From Alphaproteobacteria bacterium (GTDB lineage Bacteria > Pseudomonadota > Alphaproteobacteria > UBA7887): 64,000 nucleotides of DNA. Each line of letters begins with the position of its first letter. Within the stretch, counting starts at the first letter, position 1. Shown one piece after another: positions 35,314-57,588 of this stretch. The stretch spans positions 160,001 through 224,000 of the forward strand of contig CBDCGL010000011.1 of NCBI GenBank assembly GCA_965216755.1. Reading direction: 5' to 3'. The notes beneath the pieces are model-generated. The model saw only the letters and a program-made list of their open reading frames with translations, searched no databases and had not been told where the DNA came from. The translations under genes and the position numbers were made by a program.

Positions 35314-35327
35314 TGCTCTAGCTGCGG

Positions 35328-41890: not shown

Positions 41891-42862
41891 CTACTTTTTG
41901 GGCGATGCTTTCTTTTCTTCAATAAGGTCGGCAATGATTGTTTCTAAGGATGATCGCGGGCGATATCCGATAACGCGCTCGAGCTTGCTGACGTCGGGAA
42001 CGCGTCGCTGCATATCTTCGAAGCCGAATGTGTATGCCTGGTCGTACGGAATGACTTGAATTTCCGACGAGCTGCCAACGGTCTCTTTCACCAGTTCGGC
42101 CAGAGCTCGAATTGTGATTTCTTGGTCGTTGCCAATGTTGAATACTTGGCCGACGGCAGCGGGGGTGTCGATCAGCCGAACAATTGACTCGACCACGTCA
42201 TGGACATGGGCGAAGCATCTTGATTGTTCGCCCGATCCGTAAACCGTGATCGGATCGTTGTTCAACGCCTGACCCACGAAATTGGGCAAGACCATGCCGT
42301 ATTGGCCAGTCTGGCGCGGCCCCGTCGTATTAAACAGACGCGTAATGATCGTCGACACTTTGTTTTCCTGGGCATAAGCAAGTGCCAAACATTCATCCAG
42401 GGCTTTGGCGCACGCATAAGACCATCGAAGGTTGGCCGTCGAACCCATGACCAAATCATCATCTTCGCGAAATGGCGTTTTGGTGGACTTGCCGTAGACC
42501 TCGGAGGTCGATGCGATCAGAACCAACTTCTTCTGGGACGACGCCGCGTGGAGAATGTTTTCCGTACCATTTACATTGGTATGGATCGAGTGACTGGGTC
42601 GATCCAAGATTAGTTTGACGCCAACGGCAGCGGCCAAATGTATCGCCATGTCGCACTCATCGACCAACTCGATGACCAGTGACTGATCTCGGACCGAGCC
42701 AATCACGCAATTGAAGTTGGGGCGGTCGGCAAGCGACGCAATATTGCTCATCGATCCGGTGGACAAATTGTCCAACACAGTTACGCCGTGGTCGTCATTG
42801 AGGAGACGTTCGGCAAGGTGCGATCCAATAAAACCTGCACCTCCGGTTATGAGTATCTTCAT
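41891..42862 (-). CDS. NDP-sugar epimerase/dehydratase (UDP-glucose 4-epimerase/UDP-glucuronate decarboxylase-like)
   Basis: ITGGAGFIGSHL, HLAAAVGV, ASTSEVYG, RWSYACAK, RRVPDVSK. Confidence 0.9.
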   Translation of the reverse strand: MKILITGGAGFIGSHLAERLLNDDHGVTVLDNLSTGSMSNIASLADRPNFNCVIGSVRDQSLVIELVDECDMAIHLAAAVGVKLILDRPSHSIHTNVNGTENILHAASSQKKLVLIASTSEVYGKSTKTPFREDDDLVMGSTANLRWSYACAKALDECLALAYAQENKVSTIITRLFNTTGPRQTGQYGMVLPNFVGQALNNDPITVYGSGEQSRCFAHVHDVVESIVRLIDTPAAVGQVFNIGNDQEITIRALAELVKETVGSSSEIQVIPYDQAYTFGFEDMQRRVPDVSKLERVIGYRPRSSLETIIADLIEEKKASPKK

Positions 42863-42874
42863 GTGTTGGTCAAC

Positions 42875-44122
42875 CTATGAGTCAAGTGCATCGCGCACGG
42901 CCGTGTCGCCACTGGCCACGGCCGCGTTTCTAAGAACCGCGAAATAAGCCGTCATCACTGAATCTTCACTCCAGTGCGTTTTGAAGCCCGACAGAGCATT
43001 GTTTGCAAGCTTTTTCCGATGATCTGGTTCATTCTTCATGCGGCGAATCGCATCTTTCAGTTCTCTGCTATTTGCAAACAGTTCGCCGCCGTCGCATTGA
43101 GACACGATTTCGCCGAACGGTCCGAGATTGCGCGCGATCACCGGCGTGCCATTACGGAACGATTCAATCAAGATAATCCCAAATGTTTCAAAACAAACCG
43201 ACGGCACGATGAGTGCAATAGCGTGTTCATAGTATTGCGCGAGTTGATGCTGTGATAGGCGCCCAGTGAAAATAACATTGCTAATTCCCTCGGCGCGCTG
43301 TCGAAGTTCACTTTCATAGCTGCCATCACCGACGATCAGCAGGTCCGTGTCTGGAAAATCAGCGAACACCGGGATCACATCGTCCAGTCCCTTGATTTTC
43401 TCCAGGCGGCCGACGAACAGAAAATATGGCCGATCATGCGGGCGTCCGGACCCAGATGGAGGCTGCGTTTCGTTCTTTGGCAGAAAATAGGGGACCACGT
43501 TCATTTCCCGAGAAAATCCGAACTCTTGGTGTTTGCGACGGCTGAACTCGCTCTTCGCGATAAACGCATCGATAAATCCGAGGTGACGGTCGAGCATCCC
43601 GGTGTAACGCCAAATCTGCGGCGGGCGACGATAACTGACAACACAGCGTAGACACTGACGCTGGCGGCAAATCTCGCGATCGTGGCGCCAAAGTACGTGG
43701 GTGGGACAAACAAGCCAGTGTTCGTGTGCCTCGTAGATTTTGAGGCCATCACCCATGGCCAACAAGCCGGGACCTCCAATCAGTGAGACATTATGGTACC
43801 AAACGATGTCAAACGCGCCGGGCTTCAAGAGATCGTCGATACGACGACGGTGCACGATTGGCTTGCCCATTTGGTGGGTGAGAAGATTCGACAATAGGCC
43901 GTGCCGGCTGCGTAGCCCGATGACGCGGACATCGCCGTCAGAGGTCGTGCGATCCGGCTCTCCTCCGGCCAAGCTTACAAAGGCGTCAACGTCGTGAACG
44001 ATCGTAACGTCATGGCCCCGTCGCGCCAACGCTTTGGAAAGGCGCTCAACACCAATCGCGTCACCACCAAAACTGTATGGCGGATAAAACGTGGTCAGCA
44101 TGGCGATGCGCAGACGTTTCAC
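42875..44122 (-). CDS. GT4 glycosyltransferase
   Basis: YPPYSFGG, HEHWLVCP...C..C, VGRLEKIKG, PSVCFETFGIILIES. Confidence 0.88.
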   Translation of the reverse strand: MKRLRIAMLTTFYPPYSFGGDAIGVERLSKALARRGHDVTIVHDVDAFVSLAGGEPDRTTSDGDVRVIGLRSRHGLLSNLLTHQMGKPIVHRRRIDDLLKPGAFDIVWYHNVSLIGGPGLLAMGDGLKIYEAHEHWLVCPTHVLWRHDREICRQRQCLRCVVSYRRPPQIWRYTGMLDRHLGFIDAFIAKSEFSRRKHQEFGFSREMNVVPYFLPKNETQPPSGSGRPHDRPYFLFVGRLEKIKGLDDVIPVFADFPDTDLLIVGDGSYESELRQRAEGISNVIFTGRLSQHQLAQYYEHAIALIVPSVCFETFGIILIESFRNGTPVIARNLGPFGEIVSQCDGGELFANSRELKDAIRRMKNEPDHRKKLANNALSGFKTHWSEDSVMTAYFAVLRNAAVASGDTAVRDALDS

Positions 44123-44135: not shown

Positions 44136-45581
44136 TCACACGTTGCGTTCAAATCGCAAAGTTTCGATCACCCGGACAATCCGCTCTTTACCTTGGAGAT
44201 ACGTGAACGCAATGTAAACGACCGCACCGATTGTGATTGATGACCCAAACGCCACCACTGGTGAAAACAGACCATCGGTCAATAATTGCCAAACTAAAAC
44301 GGACACGGCCATAGCAATTGTGGCACCAATGGGAATCAAGAGCGCGCGTGTATAGGTCGCCAATTCAACACCAAATTCCTTGTTGAGAAACCAAAATCGA
44401 AGGGGCCAGACGAAAATATATCGGAATACAAAGGCCGCGGCCACCACAAGCGGGTTTAACCAAGCTGCAATGACCATTGCGATTATGCCAAATATAGATT
44501 CCAATGATGATAAAATAAAAAGTGTCTTTGGTGATCCCATAGCAAGAAAAAACGCCTGCTGAACTCTCTCAATTGAAAAATATATCCCAACCAGACAAAG
44601 AATTTGTAGAATAGGTACCGCAGATTCCCATTCTGAACCAAACATCAGCGGCACGGCTATCGATGCAACCAGCGCCAAGCCAACAAAACTGGCGAACCCA
44701 ATTGTGGCGGAAGCTTCCATAAAACTTTGCAGGAGGTTCTGGGTTTGGACTCCGGATGTGCGATATCGCGCCAAAGCAGGCTGGGCGACGGCGCGGATCG
44801 GGACGACGATAAGAAACGACAGAACTTCTACCAGACGCCATGCAATCGTGTATTGGCCAAGCACGTTGGTGCCGAAGACCATGCCTATGACAACTGTCGG
44901 TGTCTGTACGGAAATGAGCTCGCTGACGCGTAGTCCCACGACATTCACGCCGAACCCGGTGATATCTTGGGTGTGACGACGAGACATGCGAAATCGGGGT
45001 AGCCATGGACTTGCAATCCAGGCAAGGGCGCTATTTACAAAGACTTGCGCCAATCGTTGGCCAATCAACGCCCATGCACCGAAATCAGCGAGGGCCATCG
45101 CAATGCCGACGACACCACCGACGACAACCCCGCCTGTGGCACGCAGCGCCAATGCGCGAAAGCGTAGTTCGCGTCGTAGCAGAACCACCGGCACGGCGGA
45201 AAACCCAATGAAAAGTACCGTCGCGCTTCCGCCTCGCACAAAATCGGCCACGTCGGGTTCAGAATAAAGGAGCGCGATCCATGGCGCGCACGTGATCAAG
45301 GCAATGAATATCAGGACAGAGAAAAGTATCAGCAACCAAAATACCGCGTCCAAATGGCCGGGATCAGGATCATGCATTCTAATAATCGGTTCGGTAAGAG
45401 TCTCGCGAACAAGGAATTCAGCGAATATGACAAAAACCATCGCCATCATCGCCAGGCCAAACGCATCTGGTCCAAGCAATCGTGCTAGGATCACAAAGAT
45501 CACAAAGTTGAAAGCTTGCTCTGTCCAGCTTCCGGCAAACGCCCAGGCCAGGCTGGACACAATTCGGCGATGCATCTGCAC
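44136..45581 (-). CDS. wzx: Wzx/PST-family polysaccharide flippase
   Basis: ILARLLGPDAFG, LRRELRFR, GAWAL, LGQYTIA, FGSEW; multiple TM segments. Confidence 0.85.
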   Translation of the reverse strand: MQMHRRIVSSLAWAFAGSWTEQAFNFVIFVILARLLGPDAFGLAMMAMVFVIFAEFLVRETLTEPIIRMHDPDPGHLDAVFWLLILFSVLIFIALITCAPWIALLYSEPDVADFVRGGSATVLFIGFSAVPVVLLRRELRFRALALRATGGVVVGGVVGIAMALADFGAWALIGQRLAQVFVNSALAWIASPWLPRFRMSRRHTQDITGFGVNVVGLRVSELISVQTPTVVIGMVFGTNVLGQYTIAWRLVEVLSFLIVVPIRAVAQPALARYRTSGVQTQNLLQSFMEASATIGFASFVGLALVASIAVPLMFGSEWESAVPILQILCLVGIYFSIERVQQAFFLAMGSPKTLFILSSLESIFGIIAMVIAAWLNPLVVAAAFVFRYIFVWPLRFWFLNKEFGVELATYTRALLIPIGATIAMAVSVLVWQLLTDGLFSPVVAFGSSITIGAVVYIAFTYLQGKERIVRVIETLRFERNV

Positions 45582-45825
45582 CCGGTGGCTCTTTCTGCGG
45601 ATAAGCTGAGGTTGCGGGGTCGATCGCAGGTAATATATACAACAAGCGACCTTGGGGTTGCGCCTTTTTCAAGGAGTTCCCTGCAAGCCGGGGTAAACGT
45701 GTTGGTTTGCGCGGTTACAGAAGAACAGGGCATGTCGCGGCTCGGCCGCACGACTTTGATGGTATGATAGTGCTAAATGTGCAAGCGCGCGCGGCGTACC
45801 GCAACCCAACGAGACATCCATCGCC

Positions 45826-46620
45826 GTGGGGATAGGCGGACAATTGCAAACCCAGGCCCATCGTATTGATGTTTTAACTTACCACTCGATATCGGACGGC
45901 CATGGTCCGACATGCATCCCTGCGGCGACGCTGCGTGGCCATCTCGAATTCATCGATGCTTGTGGCTACACGATCGTATCGGTCGATGATTTTGTTTCTT
46001 GGCAGCAAGGGCAGAAGGTTCTGCCGCAAAAGTCAATTGTTATTACGTTTGATGACGGCTTTGCTGATTTCGCAGAACAAGCGTTCCCGATATTGCGGCA
46101 ACATAGAGCTACCGCAACGGTTTTCTTGCCGACTGGAAAGGTCGGTGGAGTCGCGGACTGGGATGGGGATCAATCGTCGCCTAACGCCCGCCTCATGTCC
46201 TGGCAGACTGTGAAAGACCTCGCAAATGAGGGAATCGGTTTTGGTAGTCACTCGGTAACGCACGCCGACTTAACCAAACTTTCTCCGCAACAGCTCGTCA
46301 ACGAACTTGTCGTATCGAAGCAACAGGTGGTCGATCGGATCGGCAAAGTACCGACGAGTTTTGCTCCGCCCTATGGCGTTTCGAACGACACGGTGCGCCG
46401 GGCGATCGGCGACCACTATGACGCGGCGTTTGGCACCCGCCTCCAATATGTTGATAGGACATCCAACAGGTACGATATCCCGCGCATCGAAATGCACTAT
46501 TTCCGTGATATGAAGCGTTGGCGCGCCCACCTTGCTGGTCGCGGCCATGTGTATTTCATGGCGCGGCGCACGCTGCGTGGCGTTCGACAGAAAATTAGTC
46601 AATTTGGCGGCAATCGCTAA
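45826..46620 (+). CDS. Polysaccharide deacetylase (CE4/NodB-like)
   Basis: LTYHSI, ITFDDG, GSHSVTH, FAPPYG, IPRIE. Confidence 0.9.
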   Translation: MGIGGQLQTQAHRIDVLTYHSISDGHGPTCIPAATLRGHLEFIDACGYTIVSVDDFVSWQQGQKVLPQKSIVITFDDGFADFAEQAFPILRQHRATATVFLPTGKVGGVADWDGDQSSPNARLMSWQTVKDLANEGIGFGSHSVTHADLTKLSPQQLVNELVVSKQQVVDRIGKVPTSFAPPYGVSNDTVRRAIGDHYDAAFGTRLQYVDRTSNRYDIPRIEMHYFRDMKRWRAHLAGRGHVYFMARRTLRGVRQKISQFGGNR

Positions 46621-46662
46621 GATCTCGGTTTTTTGTACTGACGCTAAGCGCGCCGTCGACAA

Positions 46663-47766
46663 TCACTTGCGCATCCAAGAAAAAAGAACGCCACATATAA
46701 CGCCGGATCCAAATATCAAAAACAAACCCAAGAATAAATACTTTCGGCCACCGGTTTTTGATCGGAACGCGTTCATTAGATGTTCGCGTATCCGCGGTGG
46801 CGGCGGACGGTGGATCGAACCCCAAACATCTCTCCAATGATCGGGCGTAAAGCTCTCGGATGATGTTTCGCCGACCGTATGAATCGTCACGTCCACATTG
46901 ACGCCCGTCACCTGCACGTGCAGGTAGTTATCAAACTGTTGTGCGAGTAGACGGTTCCACTCATGTGATTTTAGATAGTCTAACCCGATCGGTGATCCGA
47001 TCGCCGACTGATAATATGTGACACCGTCGCGTTGCCGATAAGAGAACTTCTGCGGGCCAAAATCACCGCTGAATACTGCGCGCACTTTGCCTTGTGTCAG
47101 CATCGGATGAACATCGCGCCACCAAGACGAATCATCTGGTTCCCACCACAATAGGTGATGCATGAAGACGAACGCATGATCGTATGTGTCTGCTTGTGAT
47201 AGCTGCTCGTCGAGAAAGTTGATCTGGTTTTCGTCAAGTGGAACGCCGCCCGGCGCATAGTGATGACGTTGATCGCCATCTTCCGGTATCCAGGCACTGC
47301 TAACCATGAGAAACCGCACTTGACCAATATCGTGAGCTTGCGGCAAGGCGCCATATCTTTCGAGATAAAGATCGCGTGTACCTAGGTCGCTGATATCGTG
47401 ATTTCCTGGCGTTCGATATATCGGAATAGATAGTGTGGCAAGGGCATTGTCCACGGCTTCCCATTCTGATCTCACTTTGGCCGTGTCGGCAGGGTCGGAA
47501 TTGACGTCCCCAAAGACGATGTCGCCTGTTAAGACGATGGCGTCAGGCGCCAAGTCGCGGACCTCGTCCAAGAGCGTGTTTAGAAGTGGGTGTGGTTTGC
47601 CATCCGCCTCGCCACGGATATGACCGAGGACGACAAACTCGAAGTCCTCGTCAACTTGGTCGCCGGACCGTGCTGGCCCGCTCGGCCTGTCTTGCCCAAG
47701 GCCAAGCCCGGGCAGGGATAGCAGCAGCGCGCATGCGGCAATGGCCAAAAACGGCTGCTTAGCCAC
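46663..47766 (-). CDS. Exported calcineurin-like metallophosphoesterase with C-terminal membrane anchor
   Basis: Signal peptide; LTGD, PGNHD, FMHH motifs; C-terminal TM; GTG start overlaps the CotH stop. Confidence 0.78.
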   Translation of the reverse strand: MAKQPFLAIAACALLLSLPGLGLGQDRPSGPARSGDQVDEDFEFVVLGHIRGEADGKPHPLLNTLLDEVRDLAPDAIVLTGDIVFGDVNSDPADTAKVRSEWEAVDNALATLSIPIYRTPGNHDISDLGTRDLYLERYGALPQAHDIGQVRFLMVSSAWIPEDGDQRHHYAPGGVPLDENQINFLDEQLSQADTYDHAFVFMHHLLWWEPDDSSWWRDVHPMLTQGKVRAVFSGDFGPQKFSYRQRDGVTYYQSAIGSPIGLDYLKSHEWNRLLAQQFDNYLHVQVTGVNVDVTIHTVGETSSESFTPDHWRDVWGSIHRPPPPRIREHLMNAFRSKTGGRKYLFLGLFLIFGSGVICGVLFSWMRK

Positions 47767-50700
47767 CGCTAAGAACCGCTTCTGCGACACCGTCGGTGGT
47801 TCCGATCGGTGCCAGTGAATAAAGTTCAAATCTATGAAGCCACAACTCAGCCGCCTGACGTTCGACCAATCCGGTATCCGCGTCTATTCGCGACGCATCG
47901 CGCGCGGGCTGAATATCAAGCAAAATCTGGTCATAGCGACCGGACGGAAGATCCATCGTGATAAGGCGCGCATATCTCTGGTCGGGCGGCAGTTGAACCG
48001 CTCGTCGGACTGTATGGTCATCCGACGCAATTTGAACTTCGACACGCTCAATGCCCCGTCCCGCCAACTCCAAGACAAGCTGATACCGCTCGTCGGACAT
48101 GTCCGCCAGTTCCCAGTCGATCTCCCGCGCAACGCTGCCTTGGCGCCCTTCGACCGAGATGAAGAGGGCGTCGCCAATTTCCTCGAGCCGTTCGGTGTCG
48201 CCCATCATATGCCAAGGAGCCCGCGACGGTGTGAAATACCGCCCAAATCGATCGCGTGCAGTGATTCGAGCTGCGGCACCGGACGGAATTGTGACGTCGA
48301 CACCGGATCTATAAGCGCCGGGAGCGAGGCCAGCCAGTCCATATGCCCAGTCCGGCCGCGAGGCGGGGTCTGCCGTCACTCGCGCCATATCCGCCGTCGC
48401 CTCAATATCGTGAATTGTAATCATCGAATTTTCATCAAGCACCAGATCGTTGTCGTTGTTCTCCACGACAGTCTTGATCAACCGGCCCCAGCCACCACCG
48501 CCATAGCGCCAGTTCTTCACTTGTGCAAGAACTCCGACAGCATTTTCCGTGATCATATTGTGAATTAGGATTGGACCTGATCGGTCCTTGATTTCAACTC
48601 CGCGATTGCCGAGCGCAATCATATTATTGGCAATGACCGGATGACTGCTTTCACCAATTGAAATGCCTTTGTCGCCGCTGTGCGTCAGTGTGTTGCCGAT
48701 GATCAGCGGCGATGACCCCATCAGGTCTATTGCATCGTTGCCAGACTCATGGAAACGTGATTGGGCTATCATTCCGGAAGAATAGTCGAAATCAATGGCA
48801 TCGGAATTCGCGCCCAAGAAATTGCCATGCGCAATTGTCGCATCGGCGTGGACCACATTGAGCGCGTCGTCACTGCGCAAATTGTCTACGAATTCGCAAT
48901 TGTCGAATGCCACGTTGCTGACCCAATGCACGCTGACCATGCCCTTGTAGGTCACACGACCGATGCGTGCGCCACCCCCGCCTCGAAAGGTCACATGTTC
49001 GAATACACTACCGTCGGCGTGTTCGTCTTGCAGGGCAAATGTGCCCCAAGGCAGAGGTCCAGAGGGTTCAAATCGGATGGGCGCGGAAGGCGTACCCCGG
49101 GCGCTGACCTTGCCGCGCGCGATAATTGACACGTCGGGATCCAAGCGGATCGTGGTACCTGGTTCGATGCGCAGCTCTTGTCGCGGATCGATCGCAAGGT
49201 CCTCGGTCAGGTGGACGACGCCGCTTAGGTGGACGCTGTTGTTTTGTCCTGTTGTGAATTGCCAAGGGCTCCAGCTGTTACCGCCGTTTAGTGAGTCTCC
49301 GTTCTGCCATGCGAGTACTTGGCTTTCCGCGCCGGTCACGCGATTTGTCAGAGTGGGTGTAATGGTGCTGGCCTCGTCGGCAACTCCAACCAGGAACAAA
49401 CGGTAATGAACGTTGCCGGCCTCGAAGTAGCCGTCGGGCGTCTTCCACCCTGGTAAGAGGCCCAACGGTTCGTTCAGCGTAAATTTGACACCGCTCGGAT
49501 GGGCGGACCGCGCGAGTGGAATCTCGGGATCGTCTATGTCTCGAACGCCATTCTGATTATGGTCGGCAAATAAACGCGCCGGCGCTGTTCCTGCTCCCGA
49601 CAATGTGAGGGCGCGCAGGTCGCTACCGGCGAAACCGATCGTTTCAAAGTCGATGACATGTAAGCTGTCTGGGCGCGCTTGTGAGCGGAACCGAATTCGC
49701 GCATCGGAGGTCCATGTTTCGAGCGTATTGACGTTTGCACGCAAGGTTTCGATGATATCTTCGGGCGTGCCGGGCGGTGATACCAGGCCGGCGCGAAGTT
49801 CCTCAAAGCGCAGATAATCTCCATAGCGAAAAACCGCGTCATCGATCAGTGCCTGGGTCGTTGCCAACAAGTCGGCTTGTATTGCCGCGTGAACATCCCG
49901 CAAGATCCGATCGACGACGAAGGGATCACGCGCAACGGCACGAAAAAAATCATTCAAAAAGCCCTGTGGCTCGGCAAGAGGTAGAATACGCAAATCCCAA
50001 GGGACCGGATGGAGGCGCGCGGTAGACGGATCCTCGTACCAGAATTGGTTATGAACGCCACTCATGTGATAGGGGTCGCCGACGAACAGCAACAGTGCGA
50101 GCATTTGCGCTATTTCCTGTCGGTCCACCAACTGCATGAGGCGTTCGTGCGCGACAAAATCCGACCCGGCGAGCGTCCCCACGAGCTCGACCAAAGCTTC
50201 GTTCGGTGCCACACCAACTGTGTTGACCTCAGCCGAACGTTCCCAAATATAGGGGTTTTCAAAGACGTTTCTCTGCAGTTTCTTGTAATACTCACCACGT
50301 TCTGCAGTGTCGGCGCGAAAGATGTTGCCCGGCATCCGTTCGATGCGCCGCACGAACGACTCATCGACAGGTTCGACGAGCCGAAACAGGCCATAAAAAT
50401 GCCGATTTACAAACACTGGCGACAAGGCGGTGAACGGCGCCATAACGTCGAATTGTTCCGTTAATTTGTTGGCTATATAACTGGACAAAACTTCTTTGCC
50501 AGAAAAACCCAGACGACGATAGCCCCCGAACAACGATGCCTTTGTTGTCCTCAGGCTGAAGGAACTTTTTGGCGTCGTCCAATGGACGCTGGTATCACCG
50601 CGACGACGTATTCTTGCCGAAATCGGTTGGCCGCCGATGTGGACACGCGCGTCGACCCAGCGGCGTTCCGCAAATGGATCCTTGAACGCGTCGGCGAAAT

Positions 50701-50995
50701 CATCGCGGTCGACGCGGAGGTCAACGATCCCGATCGAGCTTTCCTCCATGTCAATGTTTTGCCGAATTGCGATGGCCGGGAGAGCCGTCAATCCAGCGTG
50801 AAGTCGCGCTTCGATCAGATTCGCCAGCCGGCTGTTGTGACCCCACCAATCATCGAACTGCACGCGTACACGATAGTCGATTAACGCGGCCACAGATATG
50901 TAAGCTGCGGCAAACACAACAGGTGCTGTCAGAATGACAACGTCGCGAAACCTCAAACGCTGCCATGGGAAACGGGCCCTGCGACGCGCAATCAT
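47759..50995 (-). CDS. CotH-family kinase fused to a parallel beta-helix domain
   Basis: N-terminal TM; RRRGDTS...PKSSF, VFVNRHFYGLFRLVE, HNQFWY...PVPWD kinase motifs; DHNQNGVRD Ca-loop; beta-helix DDALN/DAIDFD/DAIDLM/DKGISIGE. Confidence 0.8.
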   Translation of the reverse strand: MIARRRARFPWQRLRFRDVVILTAPVVFAAAYISVAALIDYRVRVQFDDWWGHNSRLANLIEARLHAGLTALPAIAIRQNIDMEESSIGIVDLRVDRDDFADAFKDPFAERRWVDARVHIGGQPISARIRRRGDTSVHWTTPKSSFSLRTTKASLFGGYRRLGFSGKEVLSSYIANKLTEQFDVMAPFTALSPVFVNRHFYGLFRLVEPVDESFVRRIERMPGNIFRADTAERGEYYKKLQRNVFENPYIWERSAEVNTVGVAPNEALVELVGTLAGSDFVAHERLMQLVDRQEIAQMLALLLFVGDPYHMSGVHNQFWYEDPSTARLHPVPWDLRILPLAEPQGFLNDFFRAVARDPFVVDRILRDVHAAIQADLLATTQALIDDAVFRYGDYLRFEELRAGLVSPPGTPEDIIETLRANVNTLETWTSDARIRFRSQARPDSLHVIDFETIGFAGSDLRALTLSGAGTAPARLFADHNQNGVRDIDDPEIPLARSAHPSGVKFTLNEPLGLLPGWKTPDGYFEAGNVHYRLFLVGVADEASTITPTLTNRVTGAESQVLAWQNGDSLNGGNSWSPWQFTTGQNNSVHLSGVVHLTEDLAIDPRQELRIEPGTTIRLDPDVSIIARGKVSARGTPSAPIRFEPSGPLPWGTFALQDEHADGSVFEHVTFRGGGGARIGRVTYKGMVSVHWVSNVAFDNCEFVDNLRSDDALNVVHADATIAHGNFLGANSDAIDFDYSSGMIAQSRFHESGNDAIDLMGSSPLIIGNTLTHSGDKGISIGESSHPVIANNMIALGNRGVEIKDRSGPILIHNMITENAVGVLAQVKNWRYGGGGWGRLIKTVVENNDNDLVLDENSMITIHDIEATADMARVTADPASRPDWAYGLAGLAPGAYRSGVDVTIPSGAAARITARDRFGRYFTPSRAPWHMMGDTERLEEIGDALFISVEGRQGSVAREIDWELADMSDERYQLVLELAGRGIERVEVQIASDDHTVRRAVQLPPDQRYARLITMDLPSGRYDQILLDIQPARDASRIDADTGLVERQAAELWLHRFELYSLAPIGTTDGVAEAVLSGG

Positions 50996-52059
50996 CGCAG
51001 TTGATCGGGCTCAAATGCGCCGAGGTAGATACGTGCCCGCGCAGTTTCGAGGCCCCCCGGGTTAAGCGTATTTCGATAGCTGGTCTCGACCATGTCCCAC
51101 GTCTGCACGTCGACTTTCTTTGGTGCCTTGAGCGTCAGATCGACCGCTTTTACAGCAAACGGTTTTTCGGGCAGGCGAATGCTCCAACTTGAAGCGGAGC
51201 TTTGCACGCTCGCGGTGGTACTGTTCGAACGAGACGCCGCGACTTGGGGGACGTCGTATTCGCCATGAAAAGCGAAATCGAGACGCACGTGCTCGATTGC
51301 AATCGGCCCGGTGCGACTGCGGATCCGCAGCTCATCGCCATCCGCCGTGACCGGCTGGTCAAACACCGCGCGCACATTGTGCTTGTGGCCAGCGACAACA
51401 ACCCGGACGGCGGCTTGTCTTGCGCCAAGCTCGACCACGATCGTGTCTACCCGTATGGAGTCCAAATAGGTCTGAAACAGTGCGACCACCTTGTGATAGT
51501 CGGCAGCGTCGAACGCGTGCTGCACAAGAGCGTTCACGGATGGCAGGTGCGACGGGTGGACGCTGAGGATGTATGCGAAATGTTCGGCGGCCTCATCGGG
51601 TTCGTCGAAACGCCTCGCCGCCTGCGCCAATGCGAAATGGTTTTCCACGTTACGTGGATCAAATCGAACGGCGCGTCGATAGCTGCCGAGAGCAAGGCGC
51701 TTGCGGCCGAGGCCCTCATAGGCCTGCCCAAGGCCGCGTAACACGCGTTCGCGTTCAACATCCAACGCGTGGCGTACCGTCCGCGCTGGAAACGATTGAT
51801 CGAGGCTCGACAAATATGACACGGCGTCTTCGTACTTGCCGGCGGCGACCAATGCTTCGCCGTAGGTCACGTCCGCGATCGGTTGCTGAGCAAACTTAAT
51901 GATCACGCGCTGGGCGAGATTAGCGATAGGCGTGCGCAATTGTGGAACCAGCAACGGCGCGATGGCGGCAGCAACAAGCACCAAGTAAAAAATCGTGAGC
52001 GATCGTTCGTGTTGCTGAAACCACGATGCAGACCGCCGTCGCATGCCCGAAGTTTGCAC
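50992..52059 (-). CDS. Membrane-anchored TPR protein
   Basis: N-terminal TM; TPR repeats LGQAYEGLG...A...YRRAVRFDP, HFALAQA...A...F..IL...P; ATGA overlap with cotH. Confidence 0.75.
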   Translation of the reverse strand: MQTSGMRRRSASWFQQHERSLTIFYLVLVAAAIAPLLVPQLRTPIANLAQRVIIKFAQQPIADVTYGEALVAAGKYEDAVSYLSSLDQSFPARTVRHALDVERERVLRGLGQAYEGLGRKRLALGSYRRAVRFDPRNVENHFALAQAARRFDEPDEAAEHFAYILSVHPSHLPSVNALVQHAFDAADYHKVVALFQTYLDSIRVDTIVVELGARQAAVRVVVAGHKHNVRAVFDQPVTADGDELRIRSRTGPIAIEHVRLDFAFHGEYDVPQVAASRSNSTTASVQSSASSWSIRLPEKPFAVKAVDLTLKAPKKVDVQTWDMVETSYRNTLNPGGLETARARIYLGAFEPDQLR

Positions 52060-52162
52060 GGCTCAGACAGTGCACATGTGTGTTGCCACATGTGACATTG
52101 CATCAACCGGAGTCGCCCATAAAACCATGACGCAAATCGACCTAGCTGTCCGAGGCCCAATC

Positions 52163-52858
52163 TTAGATCACGACGTTTTCATGGCCAGGCAGTAACGCCA
52201 CCGTGCCGCCGTCCGTCACGGCGCGGAGCTCTTCGAGCAAATTGTGCTCATCCGTACCGCGTTTCAATTCCACCGAGTAGACGAGTTCGAGCATGGAGCC
52301 GTCACGAATCGTCTCGACGCTCAGCAGTGCATGCTCGCGCAGGCGGCGCACAAATATCCCGTCAAAAACCTCATTGTAGTCGAGGCCCGCGGGCAAATGA
52401 ATCTTGAGAAGAACTTCGCGCGACGTCACCGCTCCCACTTCAAATCGATGCAAGAAATACACAATTGCAGCCATAAACAGGGTGAAAACGACCGCCGCCA
52501 AATAAAATCCAGTACCCGTGGCCATACCGATGGCCATGGTTACAAAGATAAACGCAACGTCCCGCGAATCCTTAACCGCGTTGCGAAACCGAATGATTGA
52601 CAGGGCGCCAACGAGCGCAAAAGCGCGCGCGATATTGCTGCCGATGATCAACATGATGACCGAAACCGTCACGCCCATAATGATCATGCTGTGCACAAAA
52701 GCGACGGAGTACGACAGGCCGACATGTGTCTCGCGATAGAAATATGCGATCACCAGGCACAGAAAAAAGCTTAGAGCGAGCGCGATCATGGCTTCCCAAA
52801 GCTGAAAACCACCGCCAGCAGACGTGCTTTGAATCATTTCTCTGATGAGTTCGTCCAC
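52163..52858 (-). CDS. DUF4956 family membrane protein
   Basis: IGSNIARAFALVGALSIIRFRNAVKDSRDVAFIF..MAIGMATG signature; soluble C-terminal domain. Confidence 0.88.
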   Translation of the reverse strand: MDELIREMIQSTSAGGGFQLWEAMIALALSFFLCLVIAYFYRETHVGLSYSVAFVHSMIIMGVTVSVIMLIIGSNIARAFALVGALSIIRFRNAVKDSRDVAFIFVTMAIGMATGTGFYLAAVVFTLFMAAIVYFLHRFEVGAVTSREVLLKIHLPAGLDYNEVFDGIFVRRLREHALLSVETIRDGSMLELVYSVELKRGTDEHNLLEELRAVTDGGTVALLPGHENVVI

Positions 52859-52910
52859 TATGTCCTCCGTCTGCCCAGCCGTTCCGCCGTGATTATTTGA
52901 GAATTCGCGG

Positions 52911-53651
52911 TCAAGTTAATGCGTTATCAAAGTATGCTCGATCAACTGCAGTGCAATACTTGGATAACCGAGTCATTTGCAAGTCATTCCGAGAAACCAA
53001 TTTGCATAACCATTTCGGCGCACGATCGGCGAATTTGATCTCCATGATGATCAATCTCGGATCCACGATGTACTTGCCAGTTTCAGATTGTTTTGTAATG
53101 CCGTTGATAGATTGGTCGTACTGAACGCGCCGATCGAATGTGATTCGCAGGTCCGGTTCGAAGGTCCCAAAGAATGCGCGCCGCCTGTAAGAGACGGCCA
53201 TGCGCGGGCGAAGTTTGTACGAATATTTCAGAAAAAGAGCTTCGCGAACAATCGTGTCGTCCGATGCTGGTGGCGTGTCACGAGTGCCAGCCAGGTCGTC
53301 AGCCGCCAAACCAAATAGTTTCTCGGCCTCGGTGACGCGCAAGCGCGCCCGACGTTTCTCAAGCGTGCGGTCCAAACGTTGCTTGATCTCGACAAATAGC
53401 AGATCACCATTTCCATATCGTCGAAACCGCAGTTTACGACGGTATTTGATACCCTCAATCTTCTCCCAAAACAGGGCAAGGCCCTCCGAGTCCCAATACA
53501 CGCTGTGGACCGGGTAGCCGAATTCGTCCTCCCAATTGGGGTCGCGATAGACGTAGGGTTCTATCTCTTCGACGATACGTGGGATCCGAGTATGCGGAAC
53601 GAGGAACTTGATCTCGAATCTATTCGAGCTTCTTTTGAAGTGTTGAAGCAC
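52911..53651 (-). CDS. VTC-domain (polyphosphate polymerase/TTM) protein
   Basis: RFEIKF (ExK), SVYWD, RRKLRFRRY, FVEIKQR, YRRRAF, RITFD, MEIKF, SKYC. Confidence 0.9.
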   Translation of the reverse strand: MLQHFKRSSNRFEIKFLVPHTRIPRIVEEIEPYVYRDPNWEDEFGYPVHSVYWDSEGLALFWEKIEGIKYRRKLRFRRYGNGDLLFVEIKQRLDRTLEKRRARLRVTEAEKLFGLAADDLAGTRDTPPASDDTIVREALFLKYSYKLRPRMAVSYRRRAFFGTFEPDLRITFDRRVQYDQSINGITKQSETGKYIVDPRLIIMEIKFADRAPKWLCKLVSRNDLQMTRLSKYCTAVDRAYFDNALT

Positions 53652-53944
53652 GTCTGTCCTCAGTATTGCCCCGTAACCGACATCCGAAACTCGTCATCGG
53701 ACGATCTTATGTTTATTTACTTCGCGATGCGTCGCTGAACAGGCGACACGTTTGCACAAATGGCGCCAATTTGTCACGAACTCGTCATCTATCGTCCGTG
53801 GCGCGCGAAACAGGGTCGCCGGGACTTGACCTCTCGCCACGCCGGTGGCACCGCTATCCTATGAATTGCGAAAGTCCCGTGAGCAGATCCGTTTCGCCCG
53901 GTCGCGAACGCCTCGGCTCGAACGAGAATCCATGTCAAGACGGC

Positions 53945-55195
53945 GTGAACCGCAGGAATATTTTGCGCGTGCTGGGCGCTGGGGCAACCCTCGGGGCACT
54001 CGCCGCGTGTAAGGCGAGTCTTGGTGAGCGTTGGGTTGGGACTTGGTCGAAGGAGGCGGCCGCACGAGAGCTTGCCGCACATCGCATTTCGCGGATGGTC
54101 CCGCGCGAGATGCAGGACCGCTACAGCCACTGGGTCGGACCGAACGCGCAGCATGGTCCGGCGGGTTGGGGGCGGCGCTATCGCATACGCAGCTTGGACA
54201 CGGATCGTGGCGCTCACGGCTGGGCTATGAGCTACTGGGAAGCCGGCGAACTCGACGAATTCCTCGGCGCACGTGTCGGCGACCTTTACGACTTAGATCA
54301 GGGCGCGATGGGCGATGCATGGAAATTGGATATCGTGCTTCACGATCTGGTCGCAAACATCCTCGGCGTATCCGTGCGTGATCTGTTGGGCGCCAAGGGG
54401 CCGCCGAGCCTCCTCGCGTATAGTGCCTCAATCTACATGGAGGATGTCTGGCCGCGGGACGACCCCAAGGGGATCGATGCCATCTTGCGATCTTGCCAAA
54501 TCGACCACGATCTGGGCTATCGGGCTTTCAAGCTCAAGATCGGCCGCGGCGCGAAGCGCATGGACCGACGCGCCGGTTTGGAGCGCGACATCGCGGTGAC
54601 GTGGGCCGTCCGGGAGCGTTTTCCCAACAGCCATATCTGTGTCGACGCCAACGATAGCCTGTCCGTCGATGAGACCGTCGCATATGTGAAAGGTGCCGCC
54701 GGTGCGGACCTTTATTTTATCGAGGAGCCGTTTGTTGAGGGTCAAGATGGCCTCAAGAAGCTGCGCAGCGCCATGTTCAAGTTCAATTGCCGCGCGCTCG
54801 TCTGCGAGGGTGAGTCTCGGAGCGAACGCGCGTCACAGCGTTGGCGTTATGGCGGATACACGCAGGAGCATATCGATCGGCTGTTCCGGCTGGCCGACGA
54901 TAGACTCATCGACATTGTGAATTTGGATCTAGGACTCGTCGGATTTACGAATTGGCGGCGCATCATGCCGGAACTCGTGCGTGTTGGATTGACGGCATCG
55001 CCGCATACGTGGGCGGCGACGCCGCGGGCCTACTATGCGGCGCAGCTCGGTGGCGGCCTTGGTAATGTGGCCATTGCCGAGGGGATTCCAGGTGGTGCCG
55101 CCGACATTGACTATTCCGCTTACCGGTTCGACGCGGGCGGCCGGCTTGTATTGCCCCTCGATCGGCCGGGTTTTGGCCTCACGCTGCGCGCCTGA
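53945..55195 (+). CDS. Enolase-superfamily (mandelate racemase/MLE) enzyme with Tat-lipoprotein signal
   Basis: NRRNIL...LAAC signal; FKLKIG, VDAN, IEEP, GE, SPH. Confidence 0.78.
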   Translation: MNRRNILRVLGAGATLGALAACKASLGERWVGTWSKEAAARELAAHRISRMVPREMQDRYSHWVGPNAQHGPAGWGRRYRIRSLDTDRGAHGWAMSYWEAGELDEFLGARVGDLYDLDQGAMGDAWKLDIVLHDLVANILGVSVRDLLGAKGPPSLLAYSASIYMEDVWPRDDPKGIDAILRSCQIDHDLGYRAFKLKIGRGAKRMDRRAGLERDIAVTWAVRERFPNSHICVDANDSLSVDETVAYVKGAAGADLYFIEEPFVEGQDGLKKLRSAMFKFNCRALVCEGESRSERASQRWRYGGYTQEHIDRLFRLADDRLIDIVNLDLGLVGFTNWRRIMPELVRVGLTASPHTWAATPRAYYAAQLGGGLGNVAIAEGIPGGAADIDYSAYRFDAGGRLVLPLDRPGFGLTLRA

Positions 55196-55226
55196 AACGT
55201 TAGAATCGGAACCCAAGCGATGGTCA

Positions 55227-56114
55227 TCAGCGACTGTCGCCGCGCATTCTTGCCGCGCGTTCAAGAATGCGCAGGGCCTGTTTTTGATGCGGAATATCGA
55301 TCATTTTGCCGTCAAGTGACACCGCGCCACTGCCACCGGCATTCTCAAACGCCTTCACAACGGCCTGGGCGTGGGCGATATCCGCCGCCGAGGGCGTCAT
55401 TGCGTCATTGATAATTGGCACCTGACGCGGGTGAATCGCGATTTTTCCGGTGAAGCCTTGCCGCTGCGAAAGTTGGGTCGTGGCGCGCAGCCCTTCGTCA
55501 TCGCGGAAATCCGTGTACACCGTGTCAACCGGCTGGATGCCCCCTGCAACCGCCGCAAATAGGCACAAGGACTTGGCGAATTCATATGGCGCGTCCCAGC
55601 CGCCCGCGCCGTTCTTGTTGGTTTGGGCGCCCAGTTCCGCACTTAGATCTTCCGCGCCCCAGGCGCAGGCCGCCAAACGTGGACTCGACCCTGCCAACTC
55701 GCCCATGCGGAACATGACGTCCGGCGTTTCCGTGGCGATGACCAGAATGCGGATACGGTTCGGTGCCAAACCGTCGCGCGCCTCCAATGCGCTCAAATAG
55801 TGACACAAAGTTGTGACGTCTTCTCCGCGCCGCACCTTTGGTAAGACGATGCCGCCGAGTCCCGCTGAGACGACGGTGCTCAAGTCAGGTAAGGCATCGG
55901 CGGTTTCCAATGGATTGATCCGGACCCACCGCTCAATGTCCGTGTTTTCGACCTCTCTGAGTGTGTTGCGCACCAGCGCGCGTGCCGTCGCTTTCCGATC
56001 AGGCATGACTGCGTCTTCCAAGTCGTAAATCAACGCATCCGCGCCACTTTCGTCACCTTTGGCAATCTTGCGTTCACTGTCGCCAGGGACGAACAAATAC
56101 GATCGGGCGTTCAT
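55227..56114 (-). CDS. CitE-like acyl-CoA lyase (citramalyl/malyl-CoA lyase family)
   Basis: RSYLFVPG, DLEDAV, WVRIN, GAEDL, GFTGKIAIHPRQ, DGKMID.PH. Confidence 0.9.
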   Translation of the reverse strand: MNARSYLFVPGDSERKIAKGDESGADALIYDLEDAVMPDRKATARALVRNTLREVENTDIERWVRINPLETADALPDLSTVVSAGLGGIVLPKVRRGEDVTTLCHYLSALEARDGLAPNRIRILVIATETPDVMFRMGELAGSSPRLAACAWGAEDLSAELGAQTNKNGAGGWDAPYEFAKSLCLFAAVAGGIQPVDTVYTDFRDDEGLRATTQLSQRQGFTGKIAIHPRQVPIINDAMTPSAADIAHAQAVVKAFENAGGSGAVSLDGKMIDIPHQKQALRILERAARMRGDSR

Positions 56115-56566
56115 GTTGCAGGCTTCCTGTGCATCAGACCGGACCGCTCGCAGGTCCCGACCAACTCATCATGCTGGTTGAAGGCACGATGCTCAAACGT
56201 CACGATGCCCGTATCGGGTCGGGATTTGCTGGCGCGCATTTGGACCACTTCGGTCTCAACTCGGATCGTATCGCCGTGAAACAAAGGTTTCGGAAATCGC
56301 ACCTTGTCCCAACCGAGGTTAGCGACCGTCGTGCCCAATGTGGTATCTCCAACCGAGATCCCGACCATCAAGCCCAAAGTGAACGCGCTGTTGACGATCC
56401 GTTGGCCGAACTCCGTGTTTTTGCAATACTCTTCATCAAGATGGAGAGCCGCCGGATTGTGGGTGAGTGCACTGAAAAACGTGTTGTCGGCTTCCGTTAT
56501 TGTGCGCCGCATGGCGTGCTTGAAGACATGACCGATTTCAAACTCTTCATAGTACAGACCCGCCAT
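56111..56566 (-). CDS. MaoC-family (R)-enoyl-CoA hydratase
   Basis: GLYYEEF, RTITEADN...THNPAALH.D, ANLGW, GDT; AGGGGAGG RBS. Confidence 0.9.
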   Translation of the reverse strand: MAGLYYEEFEIGHVFKHAMRRTITEADNTFFSALTHNPAALHLDEEYCKNTEFGQRIVNSAFTLGLMVGISVGDTTLGTTVANLGWDKVRFPKPLFHGDTIRVETEVVQMRASKSRPDTGIVTFEHRAFNQHDELVGTCERSGLMHRKPAT

Positions 56567-56602
56567 GGTTCCTCCCCTCTCAATCCCTGACTCGAGCAAG
56601 GG

Positions 56603-56618
56603 TGGCACCGTAGTTGCT
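56603..56618 (+). promoter_or_regulatory. Putative sigma54 (-24/-12) promoter
   Basis: TGGCACCGTAGTTGCT matches TGGCAC-N5-TTGC with correct spacing, upstream of the methyltransferase-PrpD run. Confidence 0.45.
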
Positions 56619-56760
56619 TTTCGCCGCCGCGGCATTCGATAAATCCGAACTGTGGGCACGACCATACAACGCCGCCCCTATCATCACTGCGCCTCGGCCG
56701 CTATTGGATCGATCCGTTGGTCACGGTTCTTAGATGGCTGGCTGCAAGGGCGGGTCCTTC

Positions 56761-57588
56761 ATGGTTGAACGTTCAGGCAACTATCCCATTGACACCCGTC
56801 AGTCCGAGATTGCTCGTTTGCGCATGCAGGCTGAGGCAATGGCCTTTGATGCCGGCGTGATGCTCGATCGCATCGGCGTTAAAAGGGGGTGGCAGTGTCT
56901 CGACTTGGCATGTGGTTGCGGCGGCATTGTCGATCTACTGAGTGCACGCGTTGGGCCCACAGGCTCCGTAACCGGTCTTGATTTCGACGATGCCTTGCTT
57001 GCGGTGGCGCGCGAATGGGCCGACGAGCGCGGCCTTGGGAACGTTGACTGGGTCCGTGACGACGCCTACCGCACTCAATTGCCGGCCGGCATATTCGATT
57101 TGGTGCACATGCGCTTCATCCTGAGTACAGCTGGCAATGCGGACGAGCTCTTGTCCGAAGCAGCACGTCTGACGAAGCCCGGCGGCGTGATTGCCGCGCA
57201 GGAACCGGACATAGAGACTTTGCATTGTTATCCGCCACATCCCGCGTGGGACAGGCTACGTAACCTGCTGGAGCTGGTATTCGGTCGTGTTGGGAATATC
57301 CGAATGGCGCAGCATTTGTTTCGCCAGTTTCATGCCTTAGGCTTAGCCCGCGTTGCTTATCGGCCCTTTTTGGTGGGGTTTACGAATCAAGATCCGATGG
57401 CCGACTATTTGCCGCAAACTCTGCTCTCTTTGAAGACCACGCTTGTCGACAACGATGGCATTGATCCGAACGAAATCGATGACACGGTTGCAGCCCTGCG
57501 CACACATATGGCAAAACCGGACACGATTTCGACCAGTTACCTGGTCGCACAAGTCTGGGGCATCAAGAATGGCGAAGGGGTCCGCTGA
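56761..57588 (+). CDS. Class I SAM-dependent methyltransferase
   Basis: LDLACGCG motif I, VTGLD, FDLVHMRF, KPGG. Confidence 0.85.
   Translation: MVERSGNYPIDTRQSEIARLRMQAEAMAFDAGVMLDRIGVKRGWQCLDLACGCGGIVDLLSARVGPTGSVTGLDFDDALLAVAREWADERGLGNVDWVRDDAYRTQLPAGIFDLVHMRFILSTAGNADELLSEAARLTKPGGVIAAQEPDIETLHCYPPHPAWDRLRNLLELVFGRVGNIRMAQHLFRQFHALGLARVAYRPFLVGFTNQDPMADYLPQTLLSLKTTLVDNDGIDPNEIDDTVAALRTHMAKPDTISTSYLVAQVWGIKNGEGVR

Follow-up and report, generated by a model that had tools for sequence, protein, structure and literature searches.

The closest described relatives of the genes reported here accompany exopolysaccharide operons of Gram-positive bacteria. In the accessible portion of Whitfield et al. 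2020 (PMC7112168), cotH and genes for a "poly-phosphate polymerase," DUF4956, and DUF4832 are accessories contiguous with Gram-positive pel operons, and this portion together with excerpts of a preprint (10.1101/2024.04.20.589940) places a CotH/VTC/DUF4956 trio beside the pel loci of streptococci and clostridia. As excerpted, the preprint describes SIR_1592-1594 of S. intermedius as, by prediction, a CotH that is secreted, a VTC-like polymerase of the cytoplasm, and a membrane protein resembling MgtC, leaves their roles open, and reports that the trio was not found outside of pel operons. For NELoc-2 of C. perfringens, the excerpted text of PMC11677781 lists genes encoding VTC-domain proteins, CotH, a glycosyltransferase, and a deacetylase. 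Here we analyze a 64,000-nucleotide stretch of DNA ("the window") from an Alphaproteobacteria bacterium (UBA7887; assembly GCA_965216755.1, contig CBDCGL010000011.1, positions 160,001-224,000), in which genes for a VTC protein, a DUF4956 membrane protein, and a CotH protein are joined by genes for a TPR protein and a phosphoesterase to form a five-gene module.

The resemblance to the pel accessories is close. The same three families directly adjoin an exopolysaccharide locus with a deacetylase among its genes, and in both cases CotH is predicted to be secreted, VTC to be cytoplasmic, and DUF4956 to be a membrane protein whose ACT-like domain is in the cytoplasm. In contrast to the pel accessories, the host of the window module is diderm (we conclude this because its genome encodes LpxC); the gene order is VTC>DUF4956>TPR>CotH instead of cotH>VTC>DUF4956; the CotH protein has a transmembrane anchor, carries a fused beta-helix, and is without the canonical catalytic Asp; the TPR and phosphoesterase genes are fixed members of the module; and the locus is of the Wzx/GT4/SDR type. 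The initial annotation of this DNA had stated that VTC, DUF4956, and CotH genes adjoin in other genomes and that it knew of no demonstrated function for this adjacency. The literature that we searched held no functional study joining CotH with polyphosphate/VTC, with exopolysaccharide/kinase, or with the names of the VTC domain, but the adjacency and the link to exopolysaccharide had already been published. The five-gene diderm form is absent from the papers searched, although the supplements to PMC7112168 and to the preprint may hold diderm or non-pel examples. As far as our searches reach, the trio is of a known but uncharacterized kind, while the five-gene diderm form, the variant catalytic loop of CotH, and the TLC-like neighbor of other CotH genes (both described below) are new.

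We tentatively favor, at somewhat below even confidence, the reading that the module is an inner-membrane-spanning accessory of an exopolysaccharide or capsule locus and brings phosphate transfer to the periplasmic face. We consider this the best reading because the predicted products are split across the membrane and because the VTC protein appears to have an intact Vtc4-type site. The TTM enzyme would polymerize phosphate from ATP, as Vtc4 does, and together with DUF4956 it would supply the periplasmic face with polyphosphate (polyP) as a phosphoanhydride donor. There, an AlgG-like beta-helix and beta-sandwich domains would hold the CotH-fold enzyme on the nascent polymer, and this enzyme would move phosphate or a polyP stub onto the polysaccharide that the co-conserved GT4/GT2/SDR/CE4/Wzx genes produce. 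The TPR protein would scaffold the assembly, and the purple-acid-phosphatase-like enzyme would trim phosphate or polyP, like Ppn2 in the lumen of the yeast vacuole. In this scheme we infer the synthesis of polyP, its passage through or along DUF4956, and both the substrate and the donor of CotH.

The question addressed is where exported bacterial kinases obtain a phosphoryl donor outside of the cytoplasm. A Vtc4-like enzyme and a membrane partner that are locked to an exported CotH-fold enzyme are a concrete, widely conserved, and testable candidate answer. If true, it would give a first function to bacterial VTC-domain proteins, to DUF4956, and to many CotH proteins of non-sporulating bacteria, and it would be a new covalent or ionic modification of exopolysaccharide that is relevant to biofilm matrices.

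The five genes and their predicted arrangement across the inner membrane

The initial annotation had placed five co-oriented genes, the last three overlapping, at 46663-53651, and the open reading frames agree: all five are on the minus strand, their order in the sense of transcription is VTC>DUF4956>TPR>CotH>phosphoesterase, and the gaps between consecutive genes are 52, 103, -4, and -71 nucleotides (Table 1). The TTG start of the phosphoesterase gene, which gives the 71-nucleotide overlap with the CotH gene, is uncertain. The five genes are a conserved operon. The VTC and CotH genes are each single-copy in the 5.0-Mb genome. Scans of 45500-54200 were uninformative for both promoter-like sites (3 against 5.1 expected) and terminator-like sites (10 against 9.4 expected).

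All five domain assignments of the initial annotation (VTC, DUF4956, TPR, CotH/beta-helix, and Metallophos) were matched by Pfam hidden Markov models, and its topology also holds up in Kyte-Doolittle hydropathy combined with flanking charge. The VTC protein has no hydrophobic segment. The TPR protein has a single N-terminal transmembrane segment (20-38) with 4 K/R on its N side, and the CotH protein has an anchor at 19-37 that is preceded by 7 K/R; therefore, both should have the N-terminus inside and the bulk of the protein in the periplasm. The phosphoesterase combines a signal-like N-terminus with a transmembrane segment at its C-terminal end (365-383). The module is thus predicted to comprise a cytoplasmic TTM enzyme, a polytopic DUF4956 link, and three anchored proteins that face the periplasm.

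The VTC protein matches PF09359 over residues 10-237 with 140.7 bits (cut-off 23). By itself it gave only a weak match in a search of the PDB (E 0.025), and a profile was needed: a profile of 66 homologs matches the TTM domain of yeast Vtc4 (3g3q) with E 2e-23, and it matches the non-catalytic Vtc2 (1e-13) and Vtc3 (about 1e-9) more weakly. The residues R11, K15, R75, R77, E88, K90, K99, Y155, R157, R169, E204, K206, S230, and K231 are invariant in the 66 homologs and align, respectively, with Vtc4 R196, K200, R264, R266, E279, K281, K294, Y359, R361, R373, E426, K428, S457, and K458 (the correspondence was counted by hand on the profile alignment). Vtc4 K200, the equivalent of K15, is essential. 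Like the eukaryotic domain, the window protein keeps the equivalents of the tunnel residues R264, R266, and E426, and the excerpted text of PMC9911596 reports that the R264A/R266A/E426N mutant of Vtc4 is impaired in polyP synthesis. Judging from this alignment, the Vtc4-type active site is intact, and we consider the VTC protein to be a cytoplasmic, Vtc4-like candidate polyP polymerase.

The window protein differs from the eukaryotic VTC complex in that neither an SPX sensor nor a transmembrane domain of its own was found by Pfam and hydropathy, which matched the VTC domain alone. Its membrane partner is a DUF4956 protein, for which Foldseek found no relation to a Vtc1-type protein. The VTC-domain family comprises no fewer than 4999 cluster representatives (E<=1e-3). 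In one of its records, a VTC domain (562-792) follows an MFS transporter (29-421) within a single protein, which might be an artefact of gene calling. We found no VTC-DUF4956 or CotH-VTC fusions among longer proteins, which is weak evidence. On the other strand, an enolase-superfamily gene starts just 14 nucleotides from the VTC start, and therefore one of these two divergent starts is probably mis-set.

The DUF4956 protein matches PF16316 with 62 bits (cut-off 30.6), and in the ESM Atlas its nearest clusters belong without exception to DUF4956 (score 0.96). No other member of the module is as well conserved: 34 homologs are 54-80% identical to the window copy. The AlphaFold2 model (pLDDT 74.7) has helices at 18-44, 52-72, 76-94, 98-116, and 119-138, followed by a ferredoxin/ACT-like alpha/beta domain (148-224; beta-alpha-beta-beta-alpha-beta). 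R78, R90, R92, K96, and R99 are invariant in the 34 homologs. By the positive-inside rule, the basic loop with R90, R92, K96, and R99 and the C-terminal domain would both face the cytoplasm of the modeled protein. A prediction of the VTC + DUF4956 complex, made from 35-row alignments of each protein and no controls, scored 0.00, which says nothing either way. One record fuses DUF4956 (32-189) to a Cthe_2159 carbohydrate-binding beta-helix (344-622); this too might be a gene-calling artefact. Both fusions, each a single record, are hints in favor of the reading preferred here.

The CotH protein matches PF08757 with 42.6 bits (cut-off 23.8), and the match covers only positions 1-211 of the 322 in the profile. 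Its AlphaFold2 model (pLDDT 85.8, pTM 0.84) consists of a CotH fold (about 87-432), a beta-sandwich, a beta-helix (about 583-870), and a C-terminal beta-sandwich. Residues 87-432 superpose on CotH of B. cereus (5jd9) with Z 29.6 and a root-mean-square deviation of 2.8 Å over 320 residues (VIA-align). Foldseek matches the model to 5jd9 with E 2.5e-12 and a profile of homologs does so with E 1.7e-7, while the single sequence had no match in the PDB. The whole CotH/beta-helix protein has at least 212 relatives at E<=1e-5 in a set of 5.8 billion proteins, with 120 among the matches listed at full length (37-47% identical), and at least 598 confirmed places in a species-level genome collection.

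The beta-helix had been linked to polysaccharide in the initial annotation, and it does resemble polysaccharide enzymes. Its closest match is AlgG (4ozy; Z 29.4, 1.8 Å over 265 residues by VIA-align), followed by AlgE4/AlgE6 (Z 27-28) and then by phage tailspike depolymerases, NosD, and polysaccharide lyases. AlgG is periplasmic and works on a nascent exopolysaccharide. What the window protein shares with these mannuronan C5-epimerases and depolymerases is the right-handed beta-helix: identity is just 12-15%, many beta-helix families lie within a few Z units, and the likeness seen here is one of fold.

The phosphoesterase matches PF00149 with 36.4 bits (cut-off 21.5). Again a profile was needed, as the single sequence matched the PDB weakly (E 0.26), while a profile of 29 homologs matches the purple acid phosphatases 1qhw (E 7e-6) and 1qfc (E 1.5e-5). 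Its conserved motifs are VLGH.RG, GD...GD, PGNHD, HHLLWW, and F.GD.GP.K. The canonical metal-ligand motifs of calcineurin-like enzymes are DxH, GDxxD, GNH[DE], H, and GHxH, of which the window protein keeps GD, GNHD, and HH. We predict that it is a periplasmic, purple-acid-phosphatase-like enzyme. This would be analogous to yeast, where VTC puts polyP into the lumen of the vacuole and a lumenal metallophosphatase, Ppn2, cuts it (PMC7381174, as excerpted): in both cases an enzyme of the metallophosphatase superfamily is, or in the window is predicted to be, on the far side of the membrane. The TPR protein is a probable scaffold.

Conservation of the gene order and of the glycan neighbors

We selected 53 related loci, from three or more phyla, by their similarity to a CotH profile and used phmmer with the window proteins to identify the other members, which we counted only where the flank was long enough. 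The order VTC>DUF4956>TPR>CotH>phosphoesterase is kept throughout the 53 loci. The CotH gene is accompanied by VTC in 36/36 loci, by DUF4956 in 41/41, by TPR in 41/44, and by the phosphoesterase in 43/46. By their labels, 38 loci are of Gemmatimonadota lineage, 12 are of Planctomycetota lineage, 2 are "delta proteobacterium"/Deltaproteobacteria (one isolate name says Myxococcota), and 1 is a "bacterium." Within the window's own family, 1 of the 22 genomes gives a VTC match, and this match is weak (1/40 relatives overall), and the window's copies are most similar to those labeled Gemmatimonadota. Because the module is rare in its own family and its closest copies are labeled as another phylum, it is probably accessory in this lineage and has probably moved between phyla.

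The genes around the module are also conserved. Of the 19 loci with at least 8 kb on both sides, 17 have at least one homolog of a flanking glycan gene, as do 36 of the 42 with one long flank, which agrees with the expectation from the initial annotation that the module lies near glycan loci. In the 19 fully flanked loci, we found close homologs of the GT4 glycosyltransferase in 9 (E about 1e-140 to 1e-169), of the SDR protein in 6 (E about 1e-131 to 1e-138), and of the CE4 deacetylase in 7 (E about 1e-35); a different Wzx-like gene is directly upstream of VTC in 13. A second GT4 and a GT2 also recur beside related loci. In the window itself, the module had been described as abutting a Wzx/glycosyltransferase/sulfotransferase locus. 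This is right in outline, but the immediate neighbors are the genes for the CE4 deacetylase (on the opposite strand), the Wzx flippase, the GT4, and the SDR epimerase/dehydratase, and the sulfotransferases are 15-19 kb away.

These neighbors are not a Pel system. The flippases match Polysacc_synt/Polysacc_synt_3 instead of PelG, there was no match to the PelD family, and PelF models are absent from the best 25 of the 30 NCBIfam matches of the window GT4.

The conserved deacetylase bears on another explanation, that polyP is the product: a polyanion deposited in the periplasm or matrix would bind or cross-link a partly de-N-acetylated, cationic polysaccharide, and the CotH/beta-helix protein and the phosphoesterase would tether and size the polyP. 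The co-conservation of the CE4 gene fits this idea, as do the Gram-positive trio's association with pel operons that carry a PelA deacetylase-like domain (PMC7112168, accessible portion) and the parallel with Ppn2 as a lumenal enzyme that sizes polyP (PMC7381174, as excerpted). Yet on this view the kinase fold, with its conserved nucleotide/metal site, has no role. Furthermore, CotH genes that lack a VTC neighbor pair with a nucleotide-carrier-like transporter (see below), which points to a donor rather than to a structural polymer. We give this explanation little credence.

Genes beside CotH in 301 genomes and the supply of a phosphoryl donor

We also examined a sample of 301 genomes from the window's phylum, counting each family above its cut-off. 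(We refer to genomes by G numbers and to loci by L numbers.) As controls, B. thetaiotaomicron, C. glutamicum, and M. acetivorans match VTC, DUF4956, and CotH, and B. subtilis matches CotH only. VTC is present in 8 of the 301 genomes, at 11 loci, and DUF4956 is within 4.3 kb at all 11. CotH joins 8 of these 11 pairs. Chance adjacency was considered and is rejected in view of this pairing and of the order kept in the 53 loci. In another 3 genomes DUF4956 occurs without VTC; for two of these, the gene is on a short contig or at the edge of a contig.

Among the 7 trio loci other than the window, glycan-related families are present in the fetched stretch of 4 (L058, L059, L062, and L064), and a phosphoesterase adjoins the trio in 3, all from one genus: an MBL-fold protein in L060 and L061 and a Metallophos protein in L064. 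The CotH proteins of L059-L064 have transmembrane-like N-termini, and L063 has a weakly TPR-like gene in the same position as in the window. In L060 and L061, the MBL-fold gene comes directly after DUF4956>CotH>VTC, a place comparable to that of the window's Metallophos gene. The recurrence of a phosphoesterase in a form that is not homologous counts in favor of the preferred reading.

Of the 301 genomes, 25 have CotH, and VTC is missing from 19 of them. A gene for a polytopic transporter-like protein lies within about 2.5 kb of CotH in 16 of these 19. For instance, in L070, L072, L073, and L074, a CotH with a signal-peptide-like N-terminus is followed by a polytopic protein of 420-440 amino acids; the CotH proteins of L070, L072, and L074 also have SH3 domains. 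The polytopic proteins of L070, L073, and L074 match TLC (PF03219) with 31-35 bits (cut-off 21), and that of L072, which had no Pfam or NCBIfam match, is 38% identical to the L070 transporter. In the ESM Atlas, the transporter groups with clusters named "ADP,ATP carrier" or "NTP/NDP exchange transporter" (feature score 0.99, structural TM score about 0.9). GH113 is beside CotH in L070, L072, and L073, and ManC (GDP-mannose pyrophosphorylase) is in L070 and L073, which suggests that these loci are a mannan-related surface system.

Overall, CotH adjoins either VTC+DUF4956 (6 genomes from 4 genera) or the transporter (16 genomes from 3 genera) in 22 of 25 genomes, and never both. That nearly every CotH has one device or the other fits the idea that exported CotH proteins need a supply of donor. 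This problem has a eukaryotic counterpart: secretory-pathway glycan kinases of the Fam20/POMK kind have atypical folds, act on glycans outside of the cytosol, and need donor import, being fed ATP by Golgi/ER transporters. We found no joint study of CotH and nucleotide transporters among the matches listed. Given that the genomes are kin and the genera few, the mutually exclusive pairing of CotH, with VTC+DUF4956 in some genomes and with a TLC-like transporter in others, should be taken as a new comparative lead instead of as a statistic. It is still what a need for donor supply would predict, and it can be checked across genomes.

A more specific form of our preferred reading is that VTC+DUF4956 is a polyP synthase-translocase, exporting phosphoanhydride energy into a compartment that lacks ATP; that the CotH proteins with the His310 loop use polyP instead of ATP and act on nascent exopolysaccharide; and that canonical exported CotH proteins use ATP, supplied by the ATP/ADP-carrier-like exporter. 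Phosphorylation or polyphosphorylation by polyP, and two interchangeable donor-supply devices for extracytoplasmic kinases, are parts of this same joint reading, which we regard as possible but, taken as a whole, doubtful.

The active site of CotH is central to what follows. K143, E208, D307, H310, N316, and D334 are invariant in 34/34 full-length homologs. Besides the fold, the window protein shares with Bacillus CotH (5jd9/5jda) the equivalents of the Lys, the Glu, the Asn, and the metal-binding Asp. The latter is D334, in a PWD motif that aligns with the PWD of B. cereus CotH, and it corresponds to D251 of B. subtilis if a constant offset of 4 is applied. According to the excerpted text of PMC7821199, B. 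subtilis CotH is inactive as either D228Q or D251A. D228 appears, from the alignment, to be the equivalent of the position at which the window protein has lost its Asp. This position is M311 according to MAFFT or 312 according to HMMER; residue 312 is S in the window and, across the 34 homologs, D in 18 and S in 16. The transmembrane-anchored, VTC-linked CotH proteins of L059-L064 also lack the canonical catalytic Asp, while a His equivalent to H310 is kept in L059, L060, L062, and L064, L063 has Asn, and the loop of L061 is unaligned. The canonical CotH proteins of L058 and L070-L073 carry GD-x4-N. Because the catalytic Asp is missing, the clade must either be a pseudokinase or use another catalytic residue; the invariant D307 and H310, which are near the replaced Asp, could substitute for it. 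Other differences from Bacillus are that B. subtilis has no VTC or DUF4956 and that the window protein is predicted to be periplasmic and is three times longer.

Several observations weigh against phosphate transfer at the periplasmic face or against the supply of a donor there. First, the canonical Asp of the D-x4-N loop is not conserved in the window's CotH clade, and the phosphoesterase has non-canonical metal motifs: its motif I is G69-H70, with His70 at the Asp of purple acid phosphatases, and its motif V is GD.G, without the His residues. Second, DUF4956 has no match to a solved channel. Foldseek matched its model to no solved fold at E<=1e-3, and ferredoxin-like folds matched the C-terminal domain only, with E >= 7e-3. 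The protein is small, its weak likeness to MgtC points toward a regulator and not toward a channel, and the authors of the S. intermedius preprint suggest, in the excerpted text, that polyP may stay in the cytoplasm (10.1101/2024.04.20.589940). Third, three VTC+DUF4956 pairs (one in G172 and two in G200, all from one family) have no CotH. Fourth, the transporter is of uncertain kind and narrow distribution: the TLC match covers only positions about 387-491 of 491 in the profile, the match to TIGR00769 is 21-23 bits against a cut-off of 387, and the 16 genomes fall in only 3 genera (14, 1, and 1). In G163, an exported, lipoprotein-like CotH has neither supply gene nearby, and its genome has no such transporter; in the remaining exceptions, G209 and G334, CotH is at a contig edge. 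Finally, the 53 loci are kin and were gathered with a CotH profile, and therefore they cannot be counted as independent.

Some of these observations would be explained if the pair were instead a cytoplasmic regulator of phosphate or energy status. VTC would make or hydrolyze polyP or triphosphate inside the cell, an MgtC-like DUF4956 would anchor or regulate it, and nothing would cross the membrane; the operon would couple polysaccharide output to phosphate status, and CotH would be a non-catalytic or otherwise-fueled protein that binds or processes glycan. DUF4956 resembles MgtC/SapB in having a small polytopic N-terminal domain together with an ACT-like domain at the C-terminus, a kind of domain that is seen in ligand sensors, and it has weak matches to MgtC in Pfam (25.7 bits against 31.4 for PF02308) and in NCBIfam (25.9 against 214 for NF007431). 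It differs from MgtC/SapB in that it falls below both curated cut-offs and is paired with VTC. MgtC proteins are regulators, not transporters (as summarized in the excerpts of 10.1101/2024.04.20.589940). In two of the three CotH-less pairs, L065 and L066, a PHO4 phosphate transporter follows, which ties VTC+DUF4956 to phosphate chemistry and in this respect also counts for our preferred reading; the L066 pair adds a phytase-like esterase. Together with the cytoplasmic polyP suggested for S. intermedius, the altered CotH loop and the MgtC-likeness of DUF4956 keep the regulatory explanation alive. On the other hand, the genome encodes PPK1 and three PPK2 elsewhere, and therefore bulk polyP does not need the module's VTC. 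The pair is also locked in an operon with three periplasmic proteins across phyla, the nucleotide/metal-site residues K143, E208, N316, and D334 of CotH are invariant, and a TLC-like transporter adjoins the VTC-less CotH genes. Overall we think that a purely cytoplasmic regulator is unlikely, though it deserves serious consideration.

The loop also bears on whether the module is a periplasmic protein kinase, with CotH phosphorylating matrix, export-machinery, or surface proteins and the beta-helix merely localizing it to the polymer. The sole demonstrated activity of CotH is the phosphorylation of Ser in the coat proteins CotB and CotG (PMC7821199, as excerpted), and for the Gram-positive pel accessories, protein targets are proposed in the accessible portions of PMC7112168 and 10.1101/2024.04.20.589940. 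However, the catalytic loop of the window protein is unlike that of the CotH that is active as a protein kinase. An AlgG-like beta-helix and beta-sandwich domains are fused to the enzyme, its conserved neighbors are glycan genes, and we saw no conserved gene for a Ser-rich substrate in the 53 loci. We consider a protein-kinase module improbable, and we prefer phosphate transfer to the polysaccharide.

Other genes in the window and in related loci

The coordinates of the features discussed above, and of other genes nearby, are listed in Table 1.

Table 1. Module genes, surrounding genes of the window, and selected loci from other genomes (a blank cell means no entry).
Feature	Position	Strand	Length (amino acids)	Family matches and remarks
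VTC/TTM protein	52911..53651	-	246	Pfam PF09359, E 7e-41
DUF4956 protein	52163..52858	-	231	Pfam PF16316, E 7e-17
TPR protein	50992..52059	-	355	TPR_2, E 2e-10; other TPR families
CotH/beta-helix protein	47759..50995	-	1078	Pfam CotH, E 7e-11; Beta_helix, E 7e-11; NosD
Metallophosphoesterase	46663..47829	-	388	Pfam PF00149 Metallophos, E 1e-8
CE4 polysaccharide deacetylase	45826..46620	+		Polysacc_deac_1, E 1e-25; PgaB/IcaB-like N-terminal domain
Wzx-type MOP flippase	44136..45581	-		Polysacc_synt_3, E 7e-65; NF007773, E 8e-52 (below cut-off)
GT4 glycosyltransferase	42875..44122	-		Glycos_transf_1, E 2e-30
SDR nucleotide-sugar epimerase/dehydratase	41891..42862	-		Epimerase, E 1e-54; GDP_Man_Dehyd, E 2e-55
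Transposase remnant, two open reading frames	40342-41384	-	192, 155	DDE_Tnp_1_4, consecutive parts of the profile
Second beta-helix protein	38444-40477	-	677	NosD-like repeats; just past the transposase remnant
PMT_2/GT39-like membrane proteins	29064-31397, 36558-38087			
Sulfotransferases	27647-28552, 31414-32316			
Histidine-utilization cluster	20770-27592			HutF-like deiminase, imidazolonepropionase-like amidohydrolase, histidine ammonia-lyase, urocanase, GntR/UTRA regulator
Genes beyond VTC	53666-59138			Enolase-superfamily, HpcH/HpaI aldolase-like, MaoC/mesaconyl-CoA hydratase-like, methyltransferase, PrpD/MmgE
DUF4956 + VTC, then PHO4	L065 8621-11772; L066 6023-9012		190 (DUF4956, short)	DUF4956, Pfam E about 1e-45
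MBL-fold hydrolase	L060 12106-12906; L061 1075-1872			Apyc1-like/cyclic-nucleotide-phosphodiesterase-like, below cut-offs
Exported-CotH/transporter loci	L070 3496-13273; L072 2921-11990; L073 4150-11057; L074 2213-9235			

The CE4 deacetylase matches PgaB-type models of NCBIfam below their cut-offs. In the scanned part of the glycan region at 27647-38087, we identified no members of the Wza, Wzc, or Wzy families. In addition to the sulfotransferases and the PMT_2/GT39-like proteins, this region holds a GMC-oxidoreductase-like gene, an SDR gene, and a GT4 gene. It is separated from the GT4/SDR genes beside the module by a broken insertion sequence element.

One locus has a DUF4956 gene without a detectable VTC gene (L068, 6331-12093). 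It lies between GT4 and FkbM methyltransferase genes on one side and, on the other, a gene for a 410-amino-acid Metallophos protein along with two unannotated genes. The gene after DUF4956 encodes a protein of 273 amino acids with no Pfam match, which could be a divergent partner.

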